From a virus: a DNA stretch of 36,761 bases. Numbering within the stretch: position 1 is the stretch's first letter; each line of letters opens with the position of its first letter. The DNA lies in the IMG/VR virus record IMGVR_UViG_3300028600_000001, positions 1 through 36,761 of that record, one strand, 5' to 3'. Made by a program: the position numbers and the translations under genes. Below the pieces are notes generated by a model. That model searched no databases. It was not told the origin of the DNA and saw only the letters and a list, made by a program, of their open reading frames with translations. Shown here in pieces: positions 1-36,761 of this stretch.

Positions 1-127
1 AATCCTTCCGGAGTAAACACCACGGGCAAATAAAGATCATCGGTCGTATAAACTTTATTAGTTAGGCTTCTCGTTACGAAATCTCTGTCTGTGGTGACCG
101 GAAATTCTGAGATTGCTAGATTTCCTT
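1..127. repeat. Terminal direct repeat, copy 1 (assembly overlap or terminal redundancy)
   Basis: Read by eye: aatccttccggagtaaacacc...gattgctagatttcctt is identical to 36635-36761. Confidence 0.95.
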
Positions 128-5668: not shown

Positions 5669-5934
5669 ATAGTTGTAAAAGTTACTACCACGCCAGCCTT
5701 CTTACCTTTATATTCATCAGCATCTGTATCATACCAAATTCTGCCATTTGGCACATTAGGGTCCGCTCCAATCTGCGTAATTTGCGCTGTAGTTAAAAGG
5801 GGAATTTGAAAACCTTCCTCCGATAAATTCCTCTGCATCTCTTCTATCAAAGTAGTGAAATAGCTTTGCATCTCGGAAGTTGGGAACCCATTTTCCCCTA
5901 CCATTTTCTTTCTTTCCCATACTGGAATAAACAT
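5665..5934 (-). CDS. Small tail-associated protein, 89 aa
   Basis: Start/stop overlap with its neighbours. The motif LLTTAQITQIG..PNVPNGRIWYDTD resembles the TTAQRdal..P..G.liyNT motif seen at fibre or needle N-termini (from memory). Confidence 0.35.
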   Translation of the reverse strand: MFIPVWERKKMVGENGFPTSEMQSYFTTLIEEMQRNLSEEGFQIPLLTTAQITQIGADPNVPNGRIWYDTDADEYKGKKAGVVVTFTTI

Positions 5935-5942
5935 AGTTCCTC

Positions 5943-7454
5943 CTATTGCCAGAGGTTAGCGATGCCATTGGTGCAGCGCCATGGTCCTTCCCCAAAGTAT
6001 CTGATTTGAAGAACTAAATCATTCATGGACCCCAACTGCCACCAGACTAATCGGTTAGCCCGTACTCCCAAGCGTCTCAAGTCTTTTCTTAGGTAAGAGC
6101 TAAATTCATAGCCCCCATCTTTGGAAAGAGACAAAGCAACTCTAGGCTGGTATGAGAGCTGCGGAACAATGTGATCAGGATCGTTTCCTTGCTCCATAGT
6201 GAAAGAGAAATTTGTTAATACAAACCTCAACTGATTCGGCGCTCTTATGTTGGAGCACACGCGAATTCTTGGAATTTCTTTTATGTCTCCGTCACCGTAA
6301 TTGTATACGTGGGTAGACTCTTCCAACTGATAGATATTTCCATCATTAAAACTTATCCCGTAATACCTTCCTTCAAAATACGCCACTTCCCTTAGGATGT
6401 GATAATTCATATTCTCATCAGTTACATCAAAAAATTTCTTTGTTGTGAAATCGTAAATTAAGCTGAAGTTATCTTCTGCATTATAGAAGGTGAGCTGGTA
6501 CAAAAGATGCCCACTTATTTTTAGAAAAAAAGCAGAAGAATCTTCTGGATGTTTTAATTGCGCAAACTTGAAGTTCCAGCCATCAGTAGAAATTTGCTGA
6601 ATATCTGTTCCTTCAGAAAACATAATAACTGCGCCGCTCTTTTCATTTGAGCCTAACCAAGCAGTAATCTGGTCTGAAGATGCCAACGTAGCTGGATTTA
6701 CACAGCCATAATCAATATTGGTAGAAGTGCTTCTTTGGTAAGGAAACAACGTAGAAGGGACGCCCGTCCATTGTTCTGTCACCGTCCTTCCCATAACAAA
6801 CAATAGATTCCCCCTTCCAGCTACCCTAATTACTGCTGTGGCTAGGTCACCCTTAGTTTGAATAGACCCGCTAACAGGAGTTCCAGACGCTCCCCACAGC
6901 CAGGAAAGGCCATCACCTGGTGCTGAGAGATACCAATTGGCCGTAATGCGATCGACAATTATGAAAAAACCGTTTTGATAAGTTACATATCCAGGAATTA
7001 CGCCAGGTGGAAGAACAGCTATCTGGAAGGTATCGGCTACGTAATCGTAGACATAAAGAGCCGAAAGATCGCAGAAGGCCACTTGATTTGTGTTGTTTTC
7101 TGCAATAAAGACATCTCCGCTAAATGAGCCTATCGTTCCTATAGGATTTGAAGCGAAAGTGGTAAGGGGATTTCCCATCTGAATTAATGGGGTGAGACGA
7201 ACTACGCTATCACCGACTACTGCTACTAAGAAATCTCCTCGCGTGCTTGCGAAAAGACCTCTTCCTTTAAAGTCTTGGGATAAGGTAAGTACATTCGTGT
7301 ACCCATAGGTATCAACTAACCATCCATCTGCCAGCAGCATATTAAAAGTTCGAGACGCCTGAATCTTGGGGTCTCTTCCAAACGTAGAAGAACCAGCTAC
7401 GTCTACGGGAACCGGAATATGTTCCGGCGTAATTCTTTTGAAATTTTGAGGCAT
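5943..7454 (-). CDS. Tail hub / packaged-DNA stabilisation protein (P22 gp10-like), 503 aa
   Basis: Size and position directly after the adaptor. The C-terminus SLSKDGGYEFS...RLVWWQLGSMNDLVLQIR follows the pattern of the P22 gp10 C-terminus (SATTDGINYG...RVLWKRVGRIRRLIGFKLRV) as I recall it. Confidence 0.55.
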   Translation of the reverse strand: MPQNFKRITPEHIPVPVDVAGSSTFGRDPKIQASRTFNMLLADGWLVDTYGYTNVLTLSQDFKGRGLFASTRGDFLVAVVGDSVVRLTPLIQMGNPLTTFASNPIGTIGSFSGDVFIAENNTNQVAFCDLSALYVYDYVADTFQIAVLPPGVIPGYVTYQNGFFIIVDRITANWYLSAPGDGLSWLWGASGTPVSGSIQTKGDLATAVIRVAGRGNLLFVMGRTVTEQWTGVPSTLFPYQRSTSTNIDYGCVNPATLASSDQITAWLGSNEKSGAVIMFSEGTDIQQISTDGWNFKFAQLKHPEDSSAFFLKISGHLLYQLTFYNAEDNFSLIYDFTTKKFFDVTDENMNYHILREVAYFEGRYYGISFNDGNIYQLEESTHVYNYGDGDIKEIPRIRVCSNIRAPNQLRFVLTNFSFTMEQGNDPDHIVPQLSYQPRVALSLSKDGGYEFSSYLRKDLRRLGVRANRLVWWQLGSMNDLVLQIRYFGEGPWRCTNGIANLWQ

Positions 7455-7466
7455 AGGAAGTCCCTA

Positions 7467-8165
7467 TTAAGGTCGGAAACCTTTTCCTATATTTACATCT
7501 CCGTAATTTAGGCTGAATGGACCATTTCCAAGAACCTGCATAATGTCTAGGCTAAGATCAGGTGGGCTCACGTCTCTAATCATGCGCTCCATGTGTCGAA
7601 GCTTTCTTTCCTGGGATGGAGTCAAAGAAATCTGGTATTCATCAGCAATATCTTCTGCTAACGCATACTTCAAATACCGAAGATAGAAGCCCTCAAACGC
7701 AGTCAGTTCCTCATCTATGGTGACCGAGGAAAATCCAAACTTACCTTCTATCTCAAATGGATAGGCTAAATTGGGTAGAGGATATAGAAATAGATTTGTT
7801 CCATTTAACGTACGCTGAAAATAAGCTTGAGAGGGGAGAGTCGTAATGTTGTTAGCGCGACCCCATCCTTTGTATTGCTTCCTCTGAATAATATCTATTT
7901 CGTACCGTACCGTCCCGAGTGTAAAAGTTATGGTTGATGGATAGACAAGTAGGGGGATGAAATACTCTTCCTGCCCTACTACAGCAGTAAAGTTGTAAGG
8001 CTGGTAATAAGGTATTTGAGAAATTTCAGCTGTTTTGAAATCAAGGAGCTGGTTCAACAGAATCAGCCCCTGACTTTCTTGCTTTGGACTGAGAGTATCT
8101 AGTTCCTCTGAGTTAACAACAAACTTATATGCAGAATCTATAAGTTGTCTTGTCGTTATAGCCAC
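7467..8165 (-). CDS. Head-to-tail adaptor (gp4-like), 232 aa
   Basis: Position between the head genes and the tail hub. The N-terminal LIDSAYKFV...ESQGLILLNQLLD pattern is typical of podovirus adaptor proteins. Confidence 0.5.
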   Translation of the reverse strand: MAITTRQLIDSAYKFVVNSEELDTLSPKQESQGLILLNQLLDFKTAEISQIPYYQPYNFTAVVGQEEYFIPLLVYPSTITFTLGTVRYEIDIIQRKQYKGWGRANNITTLPSQAYFQRTLNGTNLFLYPLPNLAYPFEIEGKFGFSSVTIDEELTAFEGFYLRYLKYALAEDIADEYQISLTPSQERKLRHMERMIRDVSPPDLSLDIMQVLGNGPFSLNYGDVNIGKGFRP

Positions 8166-13688: not shown

Positions 13689-13716
13689 ATTATACAATTT
13701 AAACCAGAAAAGTCAA
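13689..13716 (-). promoter_or_regulatory. Near-consensus sigma70 promoter for the scaffold/coat (late) operon
   Basis: Minus strand reads TTGACT (13716-13711), 16-nt spacer, TATAAT (13694-13689). It lies about 150 nt upstream of the scaffold ATG. Confidence 0.65.
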
Positions 13717-13717
13717 C

Positions 13718-13758
13718 TTATTAACAGGTTATTAACAACTTATTAACAGGTTATTCAC
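13718..13758. repeat. Four 8-mers TTATTAAC / TTATTAAC / TTATTAAC / TTATTCAC at exact 11-bp phasing (equivalently two 22-bp tandem units)
   Basis: Copies start at 13718, 13729, 13740 and 13751. On the minus strand they begin 2 bp upstream of the -35 box. Confidence 0.9.
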
Positions 13759-13948
13759 ACTTTACATTCGTTGAAATGTCACCATAAGGGTTAACGGGCC
13801 ACTCCTTAAAAGAGTCTAGCAAAGACACTTTAACCTGTTGTAGAGGTCTGATGATCCGCAACTCCTCAAGCATCCCACGCGCCCATTCTGTCTCCCTTCG
13901 TAGTTTTCGTTCCTTCTCCCTGCGTCGTCTTCGCTCTTTCTGTTTCAT
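13751..13948 (-). CDS. Small Arg/Lys-rich protein, 65 aa
   Basis: ATGA start/stop overlap with the portal gene suggests coupled translation. N-terminus KQKERRRRREKERKLRR. Confidence 0.45.
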   Translation of the reverse strand: MKQKERRRRREKERKLRRETEWARGMLEELRIIRPLQQVKVSLLDSFKEWPVNPYGDISTNVKCE

Positions 13949-20161: not shown

Positions 20162-20203
20162 GTGTTGCTCCTGTTTTTGAGTTAAACAATCCTAACTATC
20201 CTT

Positions 20204-20232
20204 ACTTTACTTTATATTTAAAGTAATGTCAC
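20204..20232 (-). promoter_or_regulatory. Promoter carrying the GTAAAGTAAAG motif
   Basis: Minus strand reads GTGACA (20232-20227), 17-nt spacer, TAAAGT (20209-20204), within ATAAAGTAAAGTAAGG. Confidence 0.45.
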
Positions 20233-23831: not shown

Positions 23832-23860
23832 ATTATCACACACTTTACTTTACTTTACAA
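23832..23860 (-). promoter_or_regulatory. Leftward early promoter with GTAAAGTAAAGTAAAG in its spacer
   Basis: Minus strand reads TTGTAA (23860-23855), 17-nt spacer AGTAAAGTAAAGTGTGT, GATAAT (23837-23832). Confidence 0.55.
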
Positions 23861-25781: not shown

Positions 25782-26090
25782 ATGGCTAAACTCACTTACA
25801 AACAACGAACAAAACTGGAGCGTAAGCCCAGCAACTTTGCTCTTCCTTCTAAAAAAGAGGGAGAAAGGGATAGATACCCACTCGTAAATGCGCAGGGAAA
25901 ACCCTCCCGCTCTCATGCTGCCAATGCTAAGGCGCGTGCTACTCAGATGTTTGAGAAAGGGAAGCTCACCGCAGGCCAAAGAGCTACCGTGAATCGGAAA
26001 GCAAATGCAGTTCTAAAAGCAACCGCCAAAAAACCTATGGCTACTACCTACACAAAACCAAAGAAAGCGAAAAAGAAAGTTCGTAAGTAA
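25782..26090 (+). CDS. Small basic Lys/Ala-rich protein, 102 aa, possibly DNA-binding
   Basis: Basic throughout, with C-terminal KPKKAKKKVRK. The segment FALPSKK...YPL...SRSHAANAKARATQ is reminiscent of a small phage protein family (uncertain). Confidence 0.6.
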   Translation: MAKLTYKQRTKLERKPSNFALPSKKEGERDRYPLVNAQGKPSRSHAANAKARATQMFEKGKLTAGQRATVNRKANAVLKATAKKPMATTYTKPKKAKKKVRK

Positions 26091-26161
26091 GACTTTCTCC
26101 TTTTTCCTTACTCTTCACTTATACCCCCTCCCAGTATGCGCTAAGGACTGCGCATTAAAAT

Positions 26162-26188
26162 CAAGGGCATGGAGCCCTTGTCTCTTCT
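26162..26188 (+). terminator. Rho-independent-type terminator
   Basis: CAAGGGC-ATGGA-GCCCTTG (7-bp stem) followed by TCTCTTCT. Flanked by further hairpins at 26136-26155 and 26192-26204. Confidence 0.45.
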
Positions 26189-26259
26189 AATCAGGGAGTC
26201 CCTGTGCTTCCTGCTTAGGAGGGTTGCGCCCTATTTTCTCTTCATCTCCTGCTTTTGTG

Positions 26260-26288
26260 TTGACTTACCTGAATAAGTAAAGTAAGTT
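26260..26288 (+). promoter_or_regulatory. Promoter of the repeat-protein cassette, carrying the GTAAAGTAAG motif
   Basis: TTGACT (26260-26265), 17-nt spacer, TAAGTT (26283-26288), within AATAAGTAAAGTAAGTTACTCC. Confidence 0.55.
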
Positions 26289-26328
26289 ACTCCGCATGAA
26301 AGAGACACAAGAATCCAAGGAGAAACAC

Positions 26329-26721
26329 ATGAAAATAGAGTTTCCTTTACCTATCAAGCACAAGAAATCCCCATCTTATTCTAAAAGAGAAGGTCGGTTG
26401 CCGCTGGTAGACACTTCGAAAATGAGTGAAGAAGAAAAATTAGAGCTGGTTAAGTCCCACCCCGCCAACATCCTAAATATAGATAATCCTACTATGGCCT
26501 TAATACAGTTCGCCATTAAGAATCTGGACCCGTCAGGTATTTCCATAAAGTGTAAGAGTGATGAGAGGGGCGTACTAGCAGTCGTCCATTTAAACGAAAA
26601 AAATTCTGAGGAAGTAAAGCTAGCATCGGTGAAACAGGATGGAGATTCGATTAGATACATCAAAAACCCCTCCCCAGCTGTGAAGGCAGCAGCCCGCATA
26701 TCAATGGAGAAGCACAAATGA
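26329..26721 (+). CDS. DUF4116-like repeat protein (130 aa counted from MKIEFPL)
   Basis: AAGGAGA lies 7 nt before the ATG at 26329; the tracked ATG at 26296 would sit at the predicted transcription start. Segments NPTMALIQFAIKN and NSEEVKLASVKQDGDSIRYIKNPSPAVKAAA match the repeats of the next genes. Confidence 0.65.
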   Translation: MKIEFPLPIKHKKSPSYSKREGRLPLVDTSKMSEEEKLELVKSHPANILNIDNPTMALIQFAIKNLDPSGISIKCKSDERGVLAVVHLNEKNSEEVKLASVKQDGDSIRYIKNPSPAVKAAARISMEKHK

Positions 26722-27305
26722 ATCCAACAACTTTCAAAGAAACATTAGAAAAAGCAGAGGGGGGGGACCGAGAAGCGCAATACCAATTGAGTGTTATGTA
26801 TATGAACGGAGAGGGAGTGAAGCAAAACGATGAAAAAGATTTTTATTGGTGCCAGAGGGCCGCAGAAAGCGGACACCCCAACGCCCAATACAACTTAAGC
26901 CTTATGTATATGCAAGGGATTGGAGTTGAGAAAGATCTGGAGAAACAGTTTTATTGGTCTGAGAAGGGCGCGACAAACGGCCACGAAGAAGCCCAATACA
27001 ACTTAAGCGTTATGTATAGGGACGGAATTGGAGTCGAGAAAGATAAAGAGAAAGAGTTTTATTGGCGCCAGAAGGCCGCCGAAGGGGGGTACCCATGCGC
27101 CCAACACAACCTAAGTGTTATGTATCTGGTGGAAAAAGATTTTGAAAATGCCTTTTATTGGGCCGAGAAGGCTGCAAAGGGGGGGAACCACCACGCCCAA
27201 AAAAACTTAAGTCGTATGTATACGAACGGCGACGGCGTTGAAAAAGATGATGAAAAATCTCTTTATTGGTTCAATAAATCTTGGTTTGAAAAGGAGAACT
27301 CATGA
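26718..27305 (+). CDS. Sel1-repeat (SLR/TPR-like) protein, 195 aa, about five repeats
   Basis: Repeated AQY.LS.MY..G.GV.KD..K.FYW..KAA..G units with ~36-aa period. ATGA coupling at both ends. Confidence 0.85.
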   Translation: MNPTTFKETLEKAEGGDREAQYQLSVMYMNGEGVKQNDEKDFYWCQRAAESGHPNAQYNLSLMYMQGIGVEKDLEKQFYWSEKGATNGHEEAQYNLSVMYRDGIGVEKDKEKEFYWRQKAAEGGYPCAQHNLSVMYLVEKDFENAFYWAEKAAKGGNHHAQKNLSRMYTNGDGVEKDDEKSLYWFNKSWFEKENS

Positions 27306-27916
27306 ACAAGACCGAAGTCTCAGCGATGAGCGAGGAGGAGCAGATCGCCCTAGTCAGAACAAATCCTATAGACCTAGAAAGCTACATTGTATACATAAAT
27401 AATCCTTCTGAATCTGTACAAATGGCCTCGGTTAGAAGCGACCCTCTCTCGATACGATACCTCCATAACCCTTCCGAATCCGTTCAAATGGAAGTTGTTA
27501 GAAAGGAAGGATGGGGGCTCGAATGCATCCAAAATCCTTCAGAGGAAGTGAAGCTAGAAGCAGTTAAACAGAATTCATGGGCGATTAAATGCATCCACCA
27601 CCCCTCGGAGGAAATGAAACTCTCAGCTGTCAAACAGAATGGATTTGTGATTTCCTCCATCCAAAACCCCTCGGAGGAAATGAAACTAGCAGCGGTTAAA
27701 CAGAATGGATTGTCGATCCAATGGGTCTTAGACCCTTCCGAAGAAGTTCAAATGGCGGCAGTAAATGAGGACGGACGGGCTATACGATATATCCATCACC
27801 CAAGCGTAGTAGTACAGCTAGCCGCGGTTCACCAGTATGAAACAGCCATCCTATATATCTCTAACCCATGCGAATTAGTTCAAAAAGAACATAAGATATG
27901 CCACCCGGATCACTAA
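27302..27916 (+). CDS. DUF4116-like 23-aa tandem-repeat protein, 204 aa (7-8 repeats)
   Basis: Repeated NPSEEVKLEAVKQNGWAI.YI. units. AAGGAGA lies before the ATG. Confidence 0.75.
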   Translation: MNKTEVSAMSEEEQIALVRTNPIDLESYIVYINNPSESVQMASVRSDPLSIRYLHNPSESVQMEVVRKEGWGLECIQNPSEEVKLEAVKQNSWAIKCIHHPSEEMKLSAVKQNGFVISSIQNPSEEMKLAAVKQNGLSIQWVLDPSEEVQMAAVNEDGRAIRYIHHPSVVVQLAAVHQYETAILYISNPCELVQKEHKICHPDH

Positions 27917-27918
27917 AA

Positions 27919-28392
27919 ATGAACAAGACCGAAGTCTCAGCGATGAGCGAGGAGGATCAGTTAAGGCTAATTAAAGAGAATGGATGGGCGATTGAATACA
28001 TTGAAAACCCTTCAGAGGAAGTGAAGCTGGAAGCGGTTAAAGAGTATGGATGGGAGATTCAACACATCCAAAACCCTTCCGAGGAAGTGAAGCTGGAAGC
28101 GGTTAAAAGTATGGGATGGTCGATTGCATACATCAAAAACCCTTCAGAGGAGATGAAGCTAGCAGCTGTTAACCAGAATGGATGGGCGATTGCATGCATC
28201 AAAAACCCCTCTGAAGCCGTTCAGTTGGCTGCAGTACAACAGGACGGCCATTCCATCGAATGCATCCACAATCCCTCGGAAGCCATTCAGCTAGCAGCAG
28301 TCCAAGAGAACAGCTATTCCATAGACTGGATATCCAACCCCTCTGAAGCCGTGAAGGCAGCCGCCGCATCCAAGCGGGCAAGAGATCCTTAA
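27919..28392 (+). CDS. DUF4116-like 23-aa tandem-repeat protein, 157 aa (about 5 repeats plus a partial one)
   Basis: The first 38 nt (ATGAACAAGACCGAAGTCTCAGCGATGAGCGAGGAGGA) are identical to the start of 27302..27916, favouring the ATG at 27919 over the tracked 27898. Confidence 0.7.
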   Translation: MNKTEVSAMSEEDQLRLIKENGWAIEYIENPSEEVKLEAVKEYGWEIQHIQNPSEEVKLEAVKSMGWSIAYIKNPSEEMKLAAVNQNGWAIACIKNPSEAVQLAAVQQDGHSIECIHNPSEAIQLAAVQENSYSIDWISNPSEAVKAAAASKRARDP

Positions 28393-28409: not shown

Positions 28410-28438
28410 TTGACAACTCTTAATAAGTAAAGTAAAGT
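28410..28438 (+). promoter_or_regulatory. Promoter of the recombination module, carrying the GTAAAGTAAAG motif
   Basis: TTGACA (28410-28415), 17-nt spacer, TAAAGT (28433-28438), within AATAAGTAAAGTAAAGTACTCC. Confidence 0.6.
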
Positions 28439-28467
28439 ACTCCTTATGGATCAGGGAGAATTTAAAG

Positions 28468-29319
28468 ATGTTAACTCAATCAGAACTAGCAGCTCGTAAG
28501 GAAGGAATAGGAGGATCAGACGTAAGTGCACTGCTCGGGCTTAGCCCTTGGAAGAGCGCATTGGATGTCTATCAGGAGAAAACCCAAGAACTTCCCCCTC
28601 AAGAAATTACCCAATGGCAAGAGCTTGGGCACTTGATGGAGAATCAAATTCTAATTCCTTACTACCAACAAAAATACAATAAAGTCATAGAATTTCCTTC
28701 AACTATCAAGCACAAGAAATACCCCTTCATGCTCGCTCACGTGGATGGATTAGACGTAGAGAACAACCGCATTATCGAGTGTAAGAATGTAGGGGGGTAC
28801 AAAAACACAGATAAGTGGGGAGACGCTGGCACTGACCAAGTTCCTTACACGTACCTACTACAATGCATTCATTACATGGAAGTTCTAGAGGTTGAGGAAA
28901 CGTATTTGGTAGCACTCTTCGGCGGAAACTGCATTGAAGTCTTTATCATTAAGAGGAACGAAGAGCTAATAAACAAAGTAATTGAGAAAGAAAAACACTT
29001 CTGGGAGAACCACGTTGTTCCTGAGATTCCTCCGGAGCCTTCCACTCTCACAGACATAAAAAGTTTATATCCTTACTCTACAGAATCAAAAATAGCAGTA
29101 GCAAACACGCAGGTCTTAACGGATATCATCGAGTACCGCGAGTTGGAGCAGCGAAAATGTGGAGTTGAAAAAGAGATGGCTGTTAAAAAGGTAAGCGTTC
29201 AGAAATTCATGAAGGACGCAGAGATTTTAGTCTCACAAAACGAAGAGCAAATAGCTACCTTCAAGCAGACTAAAAAAGGATCTAGAACTTTTAGACTCAA
29301 AAAGAATTTTTTCCAATAA
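28468..29319 (+). CDS. YqaJ-type (lambda-exonuclease-fold) recombination exonuclease, 283 aa
   Basis: N-terminal GIGGSDVSALLGLSPWKSALDVYQEK is the hallmark YqaJ motif. PD-(D/E)XK elements HVDG...IIECK. Paired with RecT. Confidence 0.85.
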   Translation: MLTQSELAARKEGIGGSDVSALLGLSPWKSALDVYQEKTQELPPQEITQWQELGHLMENQILIPYYQQKYNKVIEFPSTIKHKKYPFMLAHVDGLDVENNRIIECKNVGGYKNTDKWGDAGTDQVPYTYLLQCIHYMEVLEVEETYLVALFGGNCIEVFIIKRNEELINKVIEKEKHFWENHVVPEIPPEPSTLTDIKSLYPYSTESKIAVANTQVLTDIIEYRELEQRKCGVEKEMAVKKVSVQKFMKDAEILVSQNEEQIATFKQTKKGSRTFRLKKNFFQ

Positions 29320-29329
29320 CCCTAACCCT

Positions 29330-29674
29330 ATGGAGATAGAAATGAGAAAACCAAACAACAAAACCCTAACTAACGAAGAAACGCTGAGAGAGGTCATGAA
29401 CTTTTGTCACGATATGCAGATGTCCAAAGATTCAATTTTAGATTTACAAAAAAATATGCTGGGAACTTACAAGATTTGTTTTGAGGCAGCAAAAGATGGG
29501 GTTCTCAAGGAGCCCAAAAAAGTTTTAGAAAACCTATTAAAGATGCTCGAGTACTCAAATGGAATTATTTCTTGTGGAAATAGAATCGGCATCCTAAATA
29601 AAGACGTATTCGATCAAATTATGGAAAAGTTTAAAAAGCAGTACGAAGAAAAAGGGGGGAAAAAAGATGCCTAA
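29330..29674 (+). CDS. Hypothetical protein between the exonuclease and RecT genes, 114 aa (or 110 aa from the ATG at 29342)
   Basis: ORF in the operon. GGAGA lies before the second ATG. Confidence 0.55.
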   Translation: MEIEMRKPNNKTLTNEETLREVMNFCHDMQMSKDSILDLQKNMLGTYKICFEAAKDGVLKEPKKVLENLLKMLEYSNGIISCGNRIGILNKDVFDQIMEKFKKQYEEKGGKKDA

Positions 29675-30539
29675 AACCGAGCTGAGCACTTCAAAGAACC
29701 AGCTATCCGTTATAGTGGAGAAGCAAACAGCCTCCTTAAGGAAGGCCCTGCCGAGTCACATCAAGGGACCCTCTTTCGTGCGGTCTCTTCAAACGCAGCT
29801 AAGGCTTATTCCTAAGCTTCAAGAATGCACTCCTTTGTCATTCCTCTCGTGCGCTTACCAGATAGCTCAACTAGGGCTTACGCCTTCACCTTTGCTCGGG
29901 GAATGCTATTTGATCCCCAGGCGTAAAAACGAAAAGAGAGGAACCGAGTGGATTGAGCGCTACCTATGTTCTCTAGTGATTGGCTATAAGGGCCTTATCT
30001 CCTTAGCAACAAGAGGGGGGAACGTACTGGACATCAGCACAGACGCCGTCTACGAAAAGGATGACTTTACGCTTGAAAAAGGAACCCATCCCAAGTGCAT
30101 AAACATCCCATTTGACGGAGAAGATCGTGGTGAATTTAGAGGAGCCTACGCGGTTGCTACTATGAAGAACGGCTTTAAAAAATTCGAGTACATGAGCAGG
30201 CATGAGATCAACAAAATCAGAGATAAGTCGGACGGATATCTAGCAGCCATAAAACCTCAAGGTGAAAAATCTACTTGGAAGAAGCCCAGCAGCCCTTGGA
30301 TAACAGACTACGACGAGATGGCAAAGAAGACCGTAATCAGGAGGCTCTGCAAGACGATTCCTTTCGCTTTAGAGCTCCAGCAAGCCATTTCTTTAGATGA
30401 GATTGGGGATCGCAGCCTATCCATGCAGGGGGAGCATATGCAGGCCTCCATTCCTGAAGGAGAGATACTGGACGCTCAAAGCTTTGACTCTTCTGAGCCA
30501 AGCTCAGCATCTGAGAATCTAAACAAGATTTTGGAGTAA
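29667..30539 (+). CDS. recT: RecT-family single-strand annealing protein, 290 aa
   Basis: ALPSHI...SFLSCAYQIAQLGLTPSPLLGECYLIP...VIGYKGLISLATRGG...FRGAYAVATMKNG aligns closely with E. coli RecT as remembered. Confidence 0.9.
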   Translation: MPKTELSTSKNQLSVIVEKQTASLRKALPSHIKGPSFVRSLQTQLRLIPKLQECTPLSFLSCAYQIAQLGLTPSPLLGECYLIPRRKNEKRGTEWIERYLCSLVIGYKGLISLATRGGNVLDISTDAVYEKDDFTLEKGTHPKCINIPFDGEDRGEFRGAYAVATMKNGFKKFEYMSRHEINKIRDKSDGYLAAIKPQGEKSTWKKPSSPWITDYDEMAKKTVIRRLCKTIPFALELQQAISLDEIGDRSLSMQGEHMQASIPEGEILDAQSFDSSEPSSASENLNKILE

Positions 30540-30551
30540 AGGAGAAATAAA

Positions 30552-30854
30552 ATGCGAAAACTAAGTAAGGACTTGTGGAGCAGATCATGCGATCACTCTT
30601 ATAAAGAATGCTCGGAATGCGCTTATCTAAGAGAGAATAACGTTTATTTAAAAGAGGAGGGTGGAGAAACAAAAGAGATCGGAAATTTAATTGTAAGTAG
30701 AAAGGTAGGAGAAAAAATATACATCGGAGACGATATTTTAGTTCAGATTTATCATATTGGTTCGGCTCCAAATTCAAAAAATAATAACGTAACTGTAGGA
30801 ATTTCAGCCCCTAAGGACATGTCTATACTTAGGGATAACATTAAAAAACTATAA
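30552..30854 (+). CDS. csrA: CsrA/RsmA-family RNA-binding protein with a ~44-aa Cys/His-containing N-terminal extension, 100 aa
   Basis: LIVSRKVGEKIYIGDDILVQIYHIG...NVTVGISAPKDMSILRDNI aligns with E. coli CsrA [59 protein letters not shown] lies before the ATG. Confidence 0.75.
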   Translation: MRKLSKDLWSRSCDHSYKECSECAYLRENNVYLKEEGGETKEIGNLIVSRKVGEKIYIGDDILVQIYHIGSAPNSKNNNVTVGISAPKDMSILRDNIKKL

Positions 30855-35388: not shown

Positions 35389-36761
35389 TCAATAGCGAAC
35401 TTGATAGTATACACCAAAATTGGTCGGTCTCGTAGATATGCCTCCAGCGTCATCTCCCATAAAAGTATTAGCAAGGGCAGTGCTTACTAAATCTAATACG
35501 GGGATGGCCCCTCCTCCTGATCCAGCAGAAATGGGATGATTATGAGAAGCAAAATCCTGAATCTGAGAATAATGAGCCAATAGGTTGGTAGGGTAAGGAG
35601 ATTCGCTGAAGATAGTATCTTGCGGCGAAAAAATATCGCCCATTCCTCGCAGAGCCATTCCCCTCAAATCGGGTACGGCAACAAATACTGAATTGAGAGC
35701 GGCTTGTGTTTTTAAGGTTACCGCGCTTGCCGAGTCTCCACTCAAAACATCAACTTGAATTCCAGTTCTAGCGGCTAGGAGAGGATCAACTCCTGCGCCA
35801 TCAACCGTATACCAGAAATAGTAATCCCCATTACCTACGGTTGAAAACGTGACATTAGCACCAGGCGGGATAGCCCCTCCACCGACTGGGGCAATATTCA
35901 TTTGAGAATGGCCCCTAGCAGCTGCATAGCTGGCCATTGCAACATCTTGGGTAGTCCAAGTAGATCGAAGGTTAACTTGAATTGGGGTGCCAGCTAGCCC
36001 AGGGTCTACGCCCGCTCCATCCACTGTGTACCAAAGATACGTTTGATTACCCACGATCCCTTCATTATTAAAACCCAAGGAAGCGCCAGCCGGGGGGATG
36101 CCCGTTACACTAATGCTACCTACCGTACGCCCTAAATCAGTTTTTAGAAAAATAGATAGGTTAGAGCCTACAGAAGTATTAAAGTCAAGAGAGTCTCCGG
36201 GGAAAAACACGTTTGAAATGAAAACTAATGTGGGGCCAGAAATCTCGTTTGTATTCCCAAGATAGCAGTCAAATCTATGTCCCGTAGGAGTTCCGGGAGT
36301 AACTGGGAAAAAGGTAAAGCCAGTAGCAGGCACACCATCAGCAGGAACTGCTGGGATTCCTACCTGATTATTAGATAAGAAAAAATACGTAGGGGCCACC
36401 GAAGAAATAGCCGCATCTACAAAAAATGGACCACTCCCAAATTGACACACCCCTTGGGCTACTGAGAAATATTTATCATATAAACGAGAGTAAGGAATCC
36501 CCAGAGGGCTCACTCCGTTAACCGGATAACTTGATCCGTCCGCCAAAAGTAAATTGGTAGTGGTGCTTATTGAAGGGGGGACCGCGTTCCCTAAAGTGGC
36601 TTCTATGTTCCCTATTGAAGAAGCATCGGCCGAAAATCCTTCCGGAGTAAACACCACGGGCAAATAAAGATCATCGGTCGTATAAACTTTATTAGTTAGG
36701 CTTCTCGTTACGAAATCTCTGTCTGTGGTGACCGGAAATTCTGAGATTGCTAGATTTCCTT
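35389..36761 (-). CDS. Tail fibre, 3' part; C-terminal phage tail-collar-like domain
   Basis: The tracked M at 36663 is an internal TTG (Leu). The frame stays open to the window end and continues at 1106..1. C-terminal VPDLRGMALRGMG...SHNHP...TRPTNFGVYYQVRY matches the remembered tail-collar domain pattern (lPDlRGr...G.g...H.H...rP....v.y.I). Confidence 0.75.
   Translation of the reverse strand, partial: GNLAISEFPVTTDRDFVTRSLTNKVYTTDDLYLPVVFTPEGFSADASSIGNIEATLGNAVPPSISTTTNLLLADGSSYPVNGVSPLGIPYSRLYDKYFSVAQGVCQFGSGPFFVDAAISSVAPTYFFLSNNQVGIPAVPADGVPATGFTFFPVTPGTPTGHRFDCYLGNTNEISGPTLVFISNVFFPGDSLDFNTSVGSNLSIFLKTDLGRTVGSISVTGIPPAGASLGFNNEGIVGNQTYLWYTVDGAGVDPGLAGTPIQVNLRSTWTTQDVAMASYAAARGHSQMNIAPVGGGAIPPGANVTFSTVGNGDYYFWYTVDGAGVDPLLAARTGIQVDVLSGDSASAVTLKTQAALNSVFVAVPDLRGMALRGMGDIFSPQDTIFSESPYPTNLLAHYSQIQDFASHNHPISAGSGGGAIPVLDLVSTALANTFMGDDAGGISTRPTNFGVYYQVRY
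36635..36761. repeat. Terminal direct repeat, copy 2
   Basis: Identical to 1-127. Confidence 0.95.

Follow-up and report, generated by a model that had tools for sequence, protein, structure and literature searches.

Phages are known to carry repeat proteins of kinds otherwise typical of eukaryotes and their viruses. Examples are ANKp of Ankyphage, which acts on macrophages (two of the three ANK proteins of Ankyphage have signal peptides), and the eukaryotic association module of phage WO, for which such a role has been proposed. Sel1-like repeat (SLR) proteins, among them H. pylori HcpC, E. coli EsiB (4bwr), the Sel1 proteins in PDB entries 6ok3 and 8sxq, and eukaryotic SEL1L, are scaffolds for protein-protein interactions. 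The bacterial members that have been studied well carry signal peptides and are either periplasmic or secreted. Here, we analyze a cassette of four genes at 26296-28392 of IMG/VR virus record IMGVR_UViG_3300028600_000001, one of which codes for a Sel1-like repeat protein (g2) and three for proteins of the DUF4116 type (g1, g3, and g4), a repeat family found in giant viruses and jumbo phages. The whole stretch analyzed (36,761 nt, positions 1 to 36,761 of the record) is referred to as the window, and coordinates refer to it unless another locus is named.

We tentatively favor the view that the cassette proteins are cytoplasmic protein-binding adaptors or decoys, which would be made early in infection and directed at host proteins for takeover or counter-defense. 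Both repeat families are already known in phages, DUF4116 also in giant viruses; the cassette is one more instance of phage accessory repeat proteins.

The cassette resembles ANKp and the phage WO module in being phage-borne and in the type of its repeats. Unlike Ankyphage, it codes for no signal peptides, and nothing points to lysogeny or to a habitat associated with a host. The g2 protein has the canonical 36-aa repeats of SLR proteins but, unlike the well-studied ones, lacks a signal peptide, is phage-encoded, and belongs to a putative early operon. The DUF4116 proteins share the 22-aa unit N-P-S-E-x-V-Q-L-x-A-V-x-x-x-G-x-A-I-x-Y-I-x with those of giant viruses and jumbo phages (Klosneuvirus, Hokovirus, Marseillevirus LCMAC201, Bodo saltans virus, Atu_ph07, and SCTP-2), and the predicted solenoid is alike as well (Foldseek probability 1.0, TM up to 0.79). 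Several DUF4116 paralogues per genome, as found here, also occur in Agrobacterium phage Atu_ph07 (14 places) and Salicola phage SCTP-2 (28 places). In contrast to most relatives, which have 300-1400 aa and extra N-terminal regions, the cassette proteins are short, consist of repeats only, are paired with a Sel1 protein, and are encoded in a 36.6-kb genome with a P22-like portal. As in lambdoid morons and at the gam/abc position, an accessory block lies amid core genes and upstream of recombination genes, with hairpins and a promoter-like site ahead of it. It differs from these in that its promoter is a copy from the phage itself, that no terminator follows, that its composition is not distinct, and that its proteins have no likeness to Gam or Abc. 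An earlier reading of this DNA, made from its letters without database searches (the sequence-only reading), had compared the cassette to a moron; its accessory look agrees with this, whereas the missing downstream terminator and the uniform composition do not.

Gene structure and family assignment

The four genes are on the same strand, all frames are intact, and together they take up 5.7% of the 36.6-kb genome. The junctions g1/g2 and g2/g3 are ATGA overlaps, and at g3/g4 (TAA-AA-ATG) stop and start codon are two bases apart. The tight packing of four repeat-protein genes noted by the sequence-only reading is thus borne out.

Gene g2 (26718-27305, plus strand, 195 aa) codes for five 36-aa Sel1-like repeats, the number given in the sequence-only reading. 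It scores 139.9 bits against Pfam Sel1 (PF08238; cut-off 30.7, E 1.3e-41, five repeats), matches phrog_8741 (E 3.5e-48), and is similar to Sel1 proteins with solved structures in the PDB with E-values as low as 9.9e-69. The arrays of g3 (27302-27916, plus strand, 204 aa) and g4 (27919-28392, plus strand, 157 aa, pI 4.7) comprise seven and five 22-aa units, respectively, each flanked by an N-terminal and a C-terminal cap. Both exceed the Pfam cut-off for DUF4116 (PF13475; 24.9 bits) with 45.6 bits for g3 and 43.3 bits for g4. These arrays match PHROG families 5925 and 17056 at E 1e-36 to 1e-49 (g4 vs. phrog_17056: E 2.3e-37). The periods reported by Tandem Repeats Finder are 108 nt for g2 and 66 nt for g3 and g4 (scores 185-320). 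The DUF4116 unit is thus 66 nt or 22 aa long, and not 23 aa as originally proposed.

Gene g1 (26296-26721, plus strand, 141 aa) codes for a degenerate DUF4116-like protein, which is basic (pI 9.4). An alternative start at 26329, called by JGI and preceded by an AAGGAG ribosome-binding site, results in a protein of 130 aa. With 13 bits, g1 stays below the Pfam cut-off. It nevertheless matches phrog_17056, which is of the DUF4116 type, with E 5.7e-10, and tblastn connects it to 137 DUF4116 loci. The claim of three DUF4116-like genes therefore holds at Pfam level for g3 and g4, while g1 is attached to the family less firmly, by its PHROG and tblastn matches and its modeled units. All three proteins share their caps (N-terminal MSEEE-x-hydrophobic, C-terminal NPS-x-AVKAAA).

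The proteins from g2, g3, and g4 are acidic (pI 4.7-5.3, net charge -9 to -11). None of the four cassette proteins has a catalytic domain. Hydropathy analysis, a crude test, detected no hydrophobic N-terminus, signal peptide, or membrane segment in g1-g4 (19-residue Kyte-Doolittle means peak at 0.33-1.11). The signal prediction proposed in the sequence-only reading thus returned, at the level of hydropathy, no signal-peptide-like stretch.

With a GC content of 0.43-0.45, the cassette equals its flanks and shows no compositional contrast. When the 46 genes are ranked by synonymous-codon likelihood, the four cassette genes are at ranks 5, 45, 17, and 14. Their GC3 values (0.46-0.54) are slightly above the genome mean of 0.40, as is that of the RecT gene (0.54).

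The first Sel1 repeat of g2 (residues 5-50; 26718-26870) is similar to positions 8-53 of the PADLOC model for PtuA1, the Septu ATPase (E 1.6e-8), though no single stretch is significant by itself. The N-termini of some PtuA seed sequences are probably Sel1/TPR-like. This weak match of the first Sel1 repeat to the N-terminus of the model was discounted and is not regarded as pointing to a defense role. A literature search combining Sel1, bacteriophage, and anti-defense returned nothing.

Predicted fold and variable positions

The AlphaFold2 model of g3 is a regular two-helix alpha-solenoid (pLDDT 95, pTM 0.86). Each unit consists of a 10-residue helix, a 6-residue helix, and the N-P-S turn. A published contact-based model of the DUF4116 family also is an alpha-solenoid (PMC8078820). 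For g1 (pLDDT 73), the model has a disordered basic N-terminus, two units, a low-confidence insert, and 1.5 more units, about 3.5 in all. Foldseek found no real counterpart of the DUF4116 fold in the PDB (best E 0.46, TM at most 0.28). The matches obtained are weak ones of importin-alpha/HEAT type (E at least 0.46), and a likeness to a known solenoid was rejected. In a search with a sequence profile, designed proteins were the only matches.

Among 366 units from relatives, there is almost no variation at positions 2, 3, 10, 11, 18, and 21. Within the short helix, positions 16 and 19, at a distance of three residues, are hypervariable (3.7 and 3.2 bits). Such a pattern is typical of repeat scaffolds in which the binding face varies. 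In relatives, the array is fused to F-box, DUF7666, DUF7220, and DUF6378 domains, and protein-kinase fusions were encountered among the matches in BFVD. The DUF4116 proteins of the cassette are devoid of fused domains. The fusions indicate that the array may act as a binding module.

Promoters and operon context

A putative early promoter, P1 (TTGACT-17-TAAGTT; 26260-26288, plus strand), precedes g1; its assignment is based on a consensus match only. A second promoter, P2 (TTGACA-17-TAAAGT; 28410-28438, plus strand), starts 17 nt past the g4 stop codon, agrees with the consensus at 10 of 12 positions, and precedes the gene for a YqaJ/RecE-like exonuclease (exo; 28468-29319, plus strand; Pfam YqaJ 1.4e-23; phrog_434 1.6e-67). 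P1 is the weaker sigma-70 match, and a generic scan listed P2 only. Over 39 nt, P1 is 77% identical to 28410-28448; the two have TTGAC, AATAAGTAAAGTAA, and TACTCC in common, followed by ATG. P1 thus looks like a duplicate of the phage's own exo promoter P2. The prediction that the cassette has its own promoter stands in so far as P1 is present, but this promoter is a weak sigma-70 match and a copy of P2.

The AAGTAAAGTAA core or tandem pentamer (AAGTA)n occurs at six intergenic sites which head transcription units (7 matches vs. 1.47 expected), with motif sites at 1130-1159, 20202-20212, 23845-23855, 26275-26285, and 28425-28440. A TTGAC box at equal distance from the motif is found at P1 and P2 only. 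The AAGTAAAGTAA/(AAGTA)n motif may be a phage-specific promoter or operator element.

Upstream of P1, hairpins which are possible terminators (26162-26232, plus strand; stems 26162-26180 and 26220-26232) are located in a 205-nt gap after the gene for a basic 102-aa protein. RNA folding of 26091-26260 resulted in a z-score of -1.76, and the T-tails of the hairpins are poor. The numbers of promoter-like and terminator-like sites around the cassette are not above those in shuffled controls.

No terminator is present in the 17 nt between the g4 stop codon and P2. Transcripts from P1 should therefore continue into exo, a 114-aa open reading frame (ORF), the gene for a RecT-like annealing protein (29667-30539, plus strand; phrog_148 1.1e-69), and that for a CsrA homologue (30552-30854, plus strand; Pfam CsrA 9.7e-13), which is the last gene of the exo-RecT operon. 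A phage-borne CsrA, a global RNA-binding regulator, may merit a study of its own.

Probable traces of recombination

An in-frame copy of exo codons 74-86 (IEFPxxIKHKKxP) is present within the 5' end of g1 (26335-26372, plus strand), with 34 of 38 nt matching 28687-28724. When counted from the start at 26329, the segment covers g1 codons 3-15. It is a recombination scar, by which the cassette is linked at its 5' edge with a duplicated segment of promoter and exo. Because P1 is a likely copy of P2 and g1 contains this exo fragment, the data suggest that the cassette was put together within a duplicate of the P2-exo segment, using the phage's own promoter rather than an imported one.

The 5' ends of g3 (27302-27339) and g4 (27919-27956; both plus strand) are identical over 38 of 38 nt and over 41 of the first 42. 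The identical segment begins exactly at the ATG and ends after codon 13. The start of g4 is thereby set at 27919; another ATG, at 27898, is without support. The identity is local, because repeat units agree at only 50-82% of DNA positions, whether compared within g3 or g4 or between the two, and the proteins are 53% identical. While the 38 identical nucleotides had been correctly observed, the recent duplication of the whole array that was deduced from them is ruled out by the diverged units. The identity is more plausibly ascribed to local exchange, such as gene conversion, or to constraint at the nucleotide level.

Direct repeats of about 38 nt have roughly the homology length used in RecT-type recombination. 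If the two copies were to recombine, g3 would be removed or gained a second time, exactly in frame. In two other samples, Logan contigs end exactly at the 38-nt repeat, where a k=31 assembly graph would break. Since this graph break accounts for the contig ends, they are uninformative on repeat-number variants between samples.

Similar patterns were found elsewhere. In a distant relative from IMG/VR (L025, 31 kb), two neighboring DUF4116 genes agree, from the ATG on, at 33 of 35 nt (7326-7360 and 7785-7819 of that sequence), with an N-terminal sequence unrelated to that of g3/g4. Including this pair, adjacent DUF4116 paralogues with near-identical 5' or 3' ends and diverged bodies were encountered in several viral and bacterial loci (L025, L091, L096, L040, L090, L080, and L082). 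Gene conversion or unequal crossing-over thus seems to have occurred repeatedly within DUF4116 arrays. There appears to be recombination-driven exchange of sequence among the paralogues, as would fit a family that diversifies its binding surfaces.

The portal protein of L025 is 28.5% identical over 705 aa to the P22-like portal of the phage analyzed here. Its early operon codes, in this order, for CsrA (5703-5954, E 2.4e-20), an AAA_24 ATPase, a 159-aa ORF, the two DUF4116 proteins (140 and 274 aa), and DUF7448. Tandem DUF4116 genes beside recombination-type genes and CsrA thus seem to recur in a loose portal lineage. L025 has a GC content of 38%, a P22-like portal, and two ankyrin-repeat genes (33-515 and 1127-2014), which makes it a further phage with 'eukaryote-like' repeats.

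Distribution of DUF4116 and Sel1 genes

DUF4116 is a large family, with 7,017 representatives of 50%-identity clusters (E at most 1e-3) among 1.84 billion. Foldseek matches in BFVD are mostly from giant viruses (Klosneuvirus, Hokovirus, Marseillevirus, Mimivirus, and Bodo saltans virus), some of them with F-box fusions, and include jumbo phage Atu_ph07. According to tblastn, DUF4116 genes are present in cultured phages of Agrobacterium, Salicola, Lactobacillus, Bacillus, and Pseudoalteromonas. PHROGs contains four DUF4116-type families (5925, 17056, 25923, and 35305) and one Sel1 family (phrog_8741), and 202 confirmed DUF4116 stretches were found in IMG/VR. The sequence-only reading had considered such repeat families not characteristic of phage core functions; according to these data, they are not foreign to phages.

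Identifiable neighbors in the viral contigs include a T4-type portal together with Gp23, topoisomerase, dUTPase, methylases, and Acb1 (anti-CBASS). In the Herelleviridae phage Lbab1, the DUF4116 gene is among small genes close to the genome terminus.

The bacterial survey covered 185,579 genomes (one per species) with a single peptide pattern, so that divergent members may have been missed, and returned 135 confirmed DUF4116 stretches, the best 80 of which were assigned. These are mainly from Clostridium and Peptostreptococcaceae, from Sulfurimonas and other Campylobacterota, and from CPR bacteria. Legionella, Chlamydiae, Rickettsiales, or other amoeba-associated lineages are not represented among the best 80 of 135. 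An association of these repeats with giant viruses and with amoeba-associated bacteria had been stated in the sequence-only reading; the former is confirmed by BFVD, the latter is not seen in this survey.

One contig assigned to an 'uncultured Oscillochloris' metagenome-assembled genome (CAZKTU010000001.1, 229,619 nt; L002, L082-L084, L087, and L107) codes for at least six DUF4116 proteins and, in addition, for Pyr_excise, a GT25 glycosyltransferase, and a GTPase of the Ras/Arf type. The contig seems to derive from a giant virus and to have been mis-binned with bacterial sequences.

Sel1 genes in phages are represented by phrog_8741 and were found in an Akkermansia phage (Chambord) and a Pseudomonas phage. 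In Chambord, the gene is a few genes downstream of one annotated as repressor. A Sel1 gene within 8 kb of DUF4116 was found in 1 of 159 loci. A conserved Sel1 + DUF4116 cassette is thus ruled out, and the four-gene combination is idiosyncratic.

Phage genome and occurrence

The first and last 127 nt of the window (1-127 and 36635-36761) are identical. The window therefore represents a complete, circularly permuted genome of 36,634 bp (circular or terminally redundant). A 783-aa ORF on the minus strand crosses the genome junction (35389-36634 and 1-1106) and is split in the linear window. Structural genes identified via PHROGs are those for a P22-type portal (phrog_156), the large terminase, the major head protein, and a head-closure protein. 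The phage also codes for an SLT lysozyme, the CsrA homologue, and a DUF1064 protein. Pfam detected a Cro-like helix-turn-helix protein in a divergent switch region (ca. 25.0-25.8 kb). Beside this region and directly 5' of the cassette (25782-26090, plus strand), a 102-aa protein with a pI of 11.2 and a net charge of +25 is encoded (phrog_16160). No ORF of at least 180 aa matched an integrase profile from Pfam or PHROGs, which points to a lytic-type setting. Short tandem repeats with units of 11/22 nt (13714-13759) and 24 nt (13891-13941) are located in a 400-nt gap just downstream of the minus-strand portal gene and could be a regulatory or packaging-related site.

The best portal relatives among cultured phages are only 21-24% identical and are from podophages of Vibrio, Pseudomonas, Xanthomonas, and Acetobacter. 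Megablast comparison of 16.8 kb of the phage to 50,697 phage records returned zero matches. No close relatives were found by protein scans of IMG/VR (seeded with exo and g3) and of JGI metagenomes (seeded with exo). The exact 23-base P1/P2 promoter pattern had no match in IMG/VR and JGI metagenomes, in a search that did not recover the phage itself either. The same sequence is present in JGI metagenome 3300028599 and in the Logan assemblies SRR12605076, SRR12605113, and ERR11809035, with at most one mismatch in 6.5 kb. As to host clues in the genome, there are zero tRNA genes and zero Rfam matches. The SLT lysozyme and the portal relatives weakly hint at a Gram-negative host.

Proposed function and alternative explanations

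For the cassette proteins acting as cytoplasmic adaptors or decoys, the following course of events is envisaged. The accessory block heads the rightward early operon, and P1 would drive its transcription. The four genes would be translated as a coupled unit and co-expressed with exo, RecT, and CsrA. The soluble alpha-solenoids, one Sel1-like and three of the DUF4116 type, would bind host proteins in the infected cell, and binding would either block a defense or nuclease system or serve host takeover. That the cassette is part of the phage's own program is indicated by P1 as a copy of P2, by the exo fragment in g1, by the lack of a terminator, and by ordinary GC content and codon usage. Further points in favor are the solenoid fold with its variable positions, the domain fusions of relatives, the predicted cytoplasmic location, the lack of an integrase match, and comparable settings elsewhere, namely in L025, in Lbab1, and in viral contigs where DUF4116 has neighbors for DNA metabolism, DNA modification, and anti-CBASS (Acb1). 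A protein-binding scaffold acting during infection, one of two roles considered in the sequence-only reading, would fit this evidence.

Several points weigh against this proposal. To our knowledge, no DUF4116 member has a tested function or a solved structure, so that the argument for a binding role is drawn from the fold alone. Early timing of the cassette is suggested only by promoter-like sequence and position, and P1 is a weak sigma-70 match. There is no constant partner beside the DUF4116 genes (114 viral ORFs), and PADLOC returned nothing informative for the cassette.

A more general version of the proposal would regard DUF4116 solenoids, here together with Sel1, as widespread unrecognized viral decoys or inhibitors which neutralize host defense or nucleases early in infection. 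Positions 16 and 19 would then track the targets, and the 38-nt ends would allow exo/RecT to add, delete, and swap genes in frame ('gene accordion'). We consider this version unlikely.

Less likely again is that the cassette proteins are helpers of the recombination module, either as Gam/Abc-like inhibitors of RecBCD-type nucleases or as scaffolds for exo/RecT. The cassette occupies the position of lambda gam and P22 abc, upstream of recombinase genes in an early operon, and is directly followed by exo-RecT with no terminator between. The acidic nature of g2, g3, and g4 and the exo fragment at the start of g1 would be in line with such a role, as would the DUF4116 pair of L025, which comes after an AAA_24 (Sak4-type) ATPase. 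However, there is no sequence or fold likeness to Gam, Abc, or any nuclease inhibitor, and the exo fragment comprises just 13 codons, which fall in a stretch of predicted disorder. Most other viral loci have genes other than recombinases as neighbors, and relatives of the YqaJ or RecT genes of this phage were found in 0 of 159 DUF4116 loci.

We give even less weight to the view that the four genes are passengers of little or no function, belonging to a repeat family which spreads and expands by recombination in recombination-proficient phages. Adjacent paralogues with homogenized ends in several loci, the pairing with Sel1, which is unique among the 159 loci, and the degenerate appearance of g1 could be explained in this way. 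This is opposed by four intact and tightly coupled frames occupying 5.7% of a 36.6-kb genome, with codon usage as in the rest of that genome and with the same sequence in four samples (at most one difference in 6.5 kb). Also, structural positions of the repeat are kept while surface positions vary.

The other role considered in the sequence-only reading, that the proteins are 'eukaryote-like' effectors which change the interaction of the bacterial host with a eukaryotic cell (amoeba, sponge, or animal), is the least probable explanation: while phage repeat proteins acting on eukaryotes are a precedent, DUF4116 is richest in giant viruses of protists and sometimes fused to F-box domains, and L025 has two ankyrin-repeat proteins in addition to its DUF4116 pair, the g1-g4 proteins lack the signal peptide or hydrophobic N-terminus found in two of three Ankyphage ANK proteins, no integrase or other sign of lysogeny was found, the cassette sits in an early recombination operon under a phage-type promoter with expected read-through into exo-RecT, DUF4116 genes are known from T4-like contigs and from phages with free-living hosts (Agrobacterium, Salicola, Lactobacillus, Bacillus, and Pseudoalteromonas), and bacterial homologues (best 80 of 135) are from Clostridia, Campylobacterota, and CPR bacteria rather than from amoeba-associated lineages.

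Implications

The results correct the idea that Sel1 and DUF4116 families point to a eukaryote-associated host. With about 7,000 clusters, DUF4116 spans giant viruses, jumbo phages, and several bacterial phyla. The cassette is compact, with three short repeat-only paralogues and a Sel1 protein, which makes it a handy source of constructs for structure determination and for partner screens. If the cassette proteins do bind nucleases or defense proteins of the host, a role could be assigned to a large viral family that lacks annotation.

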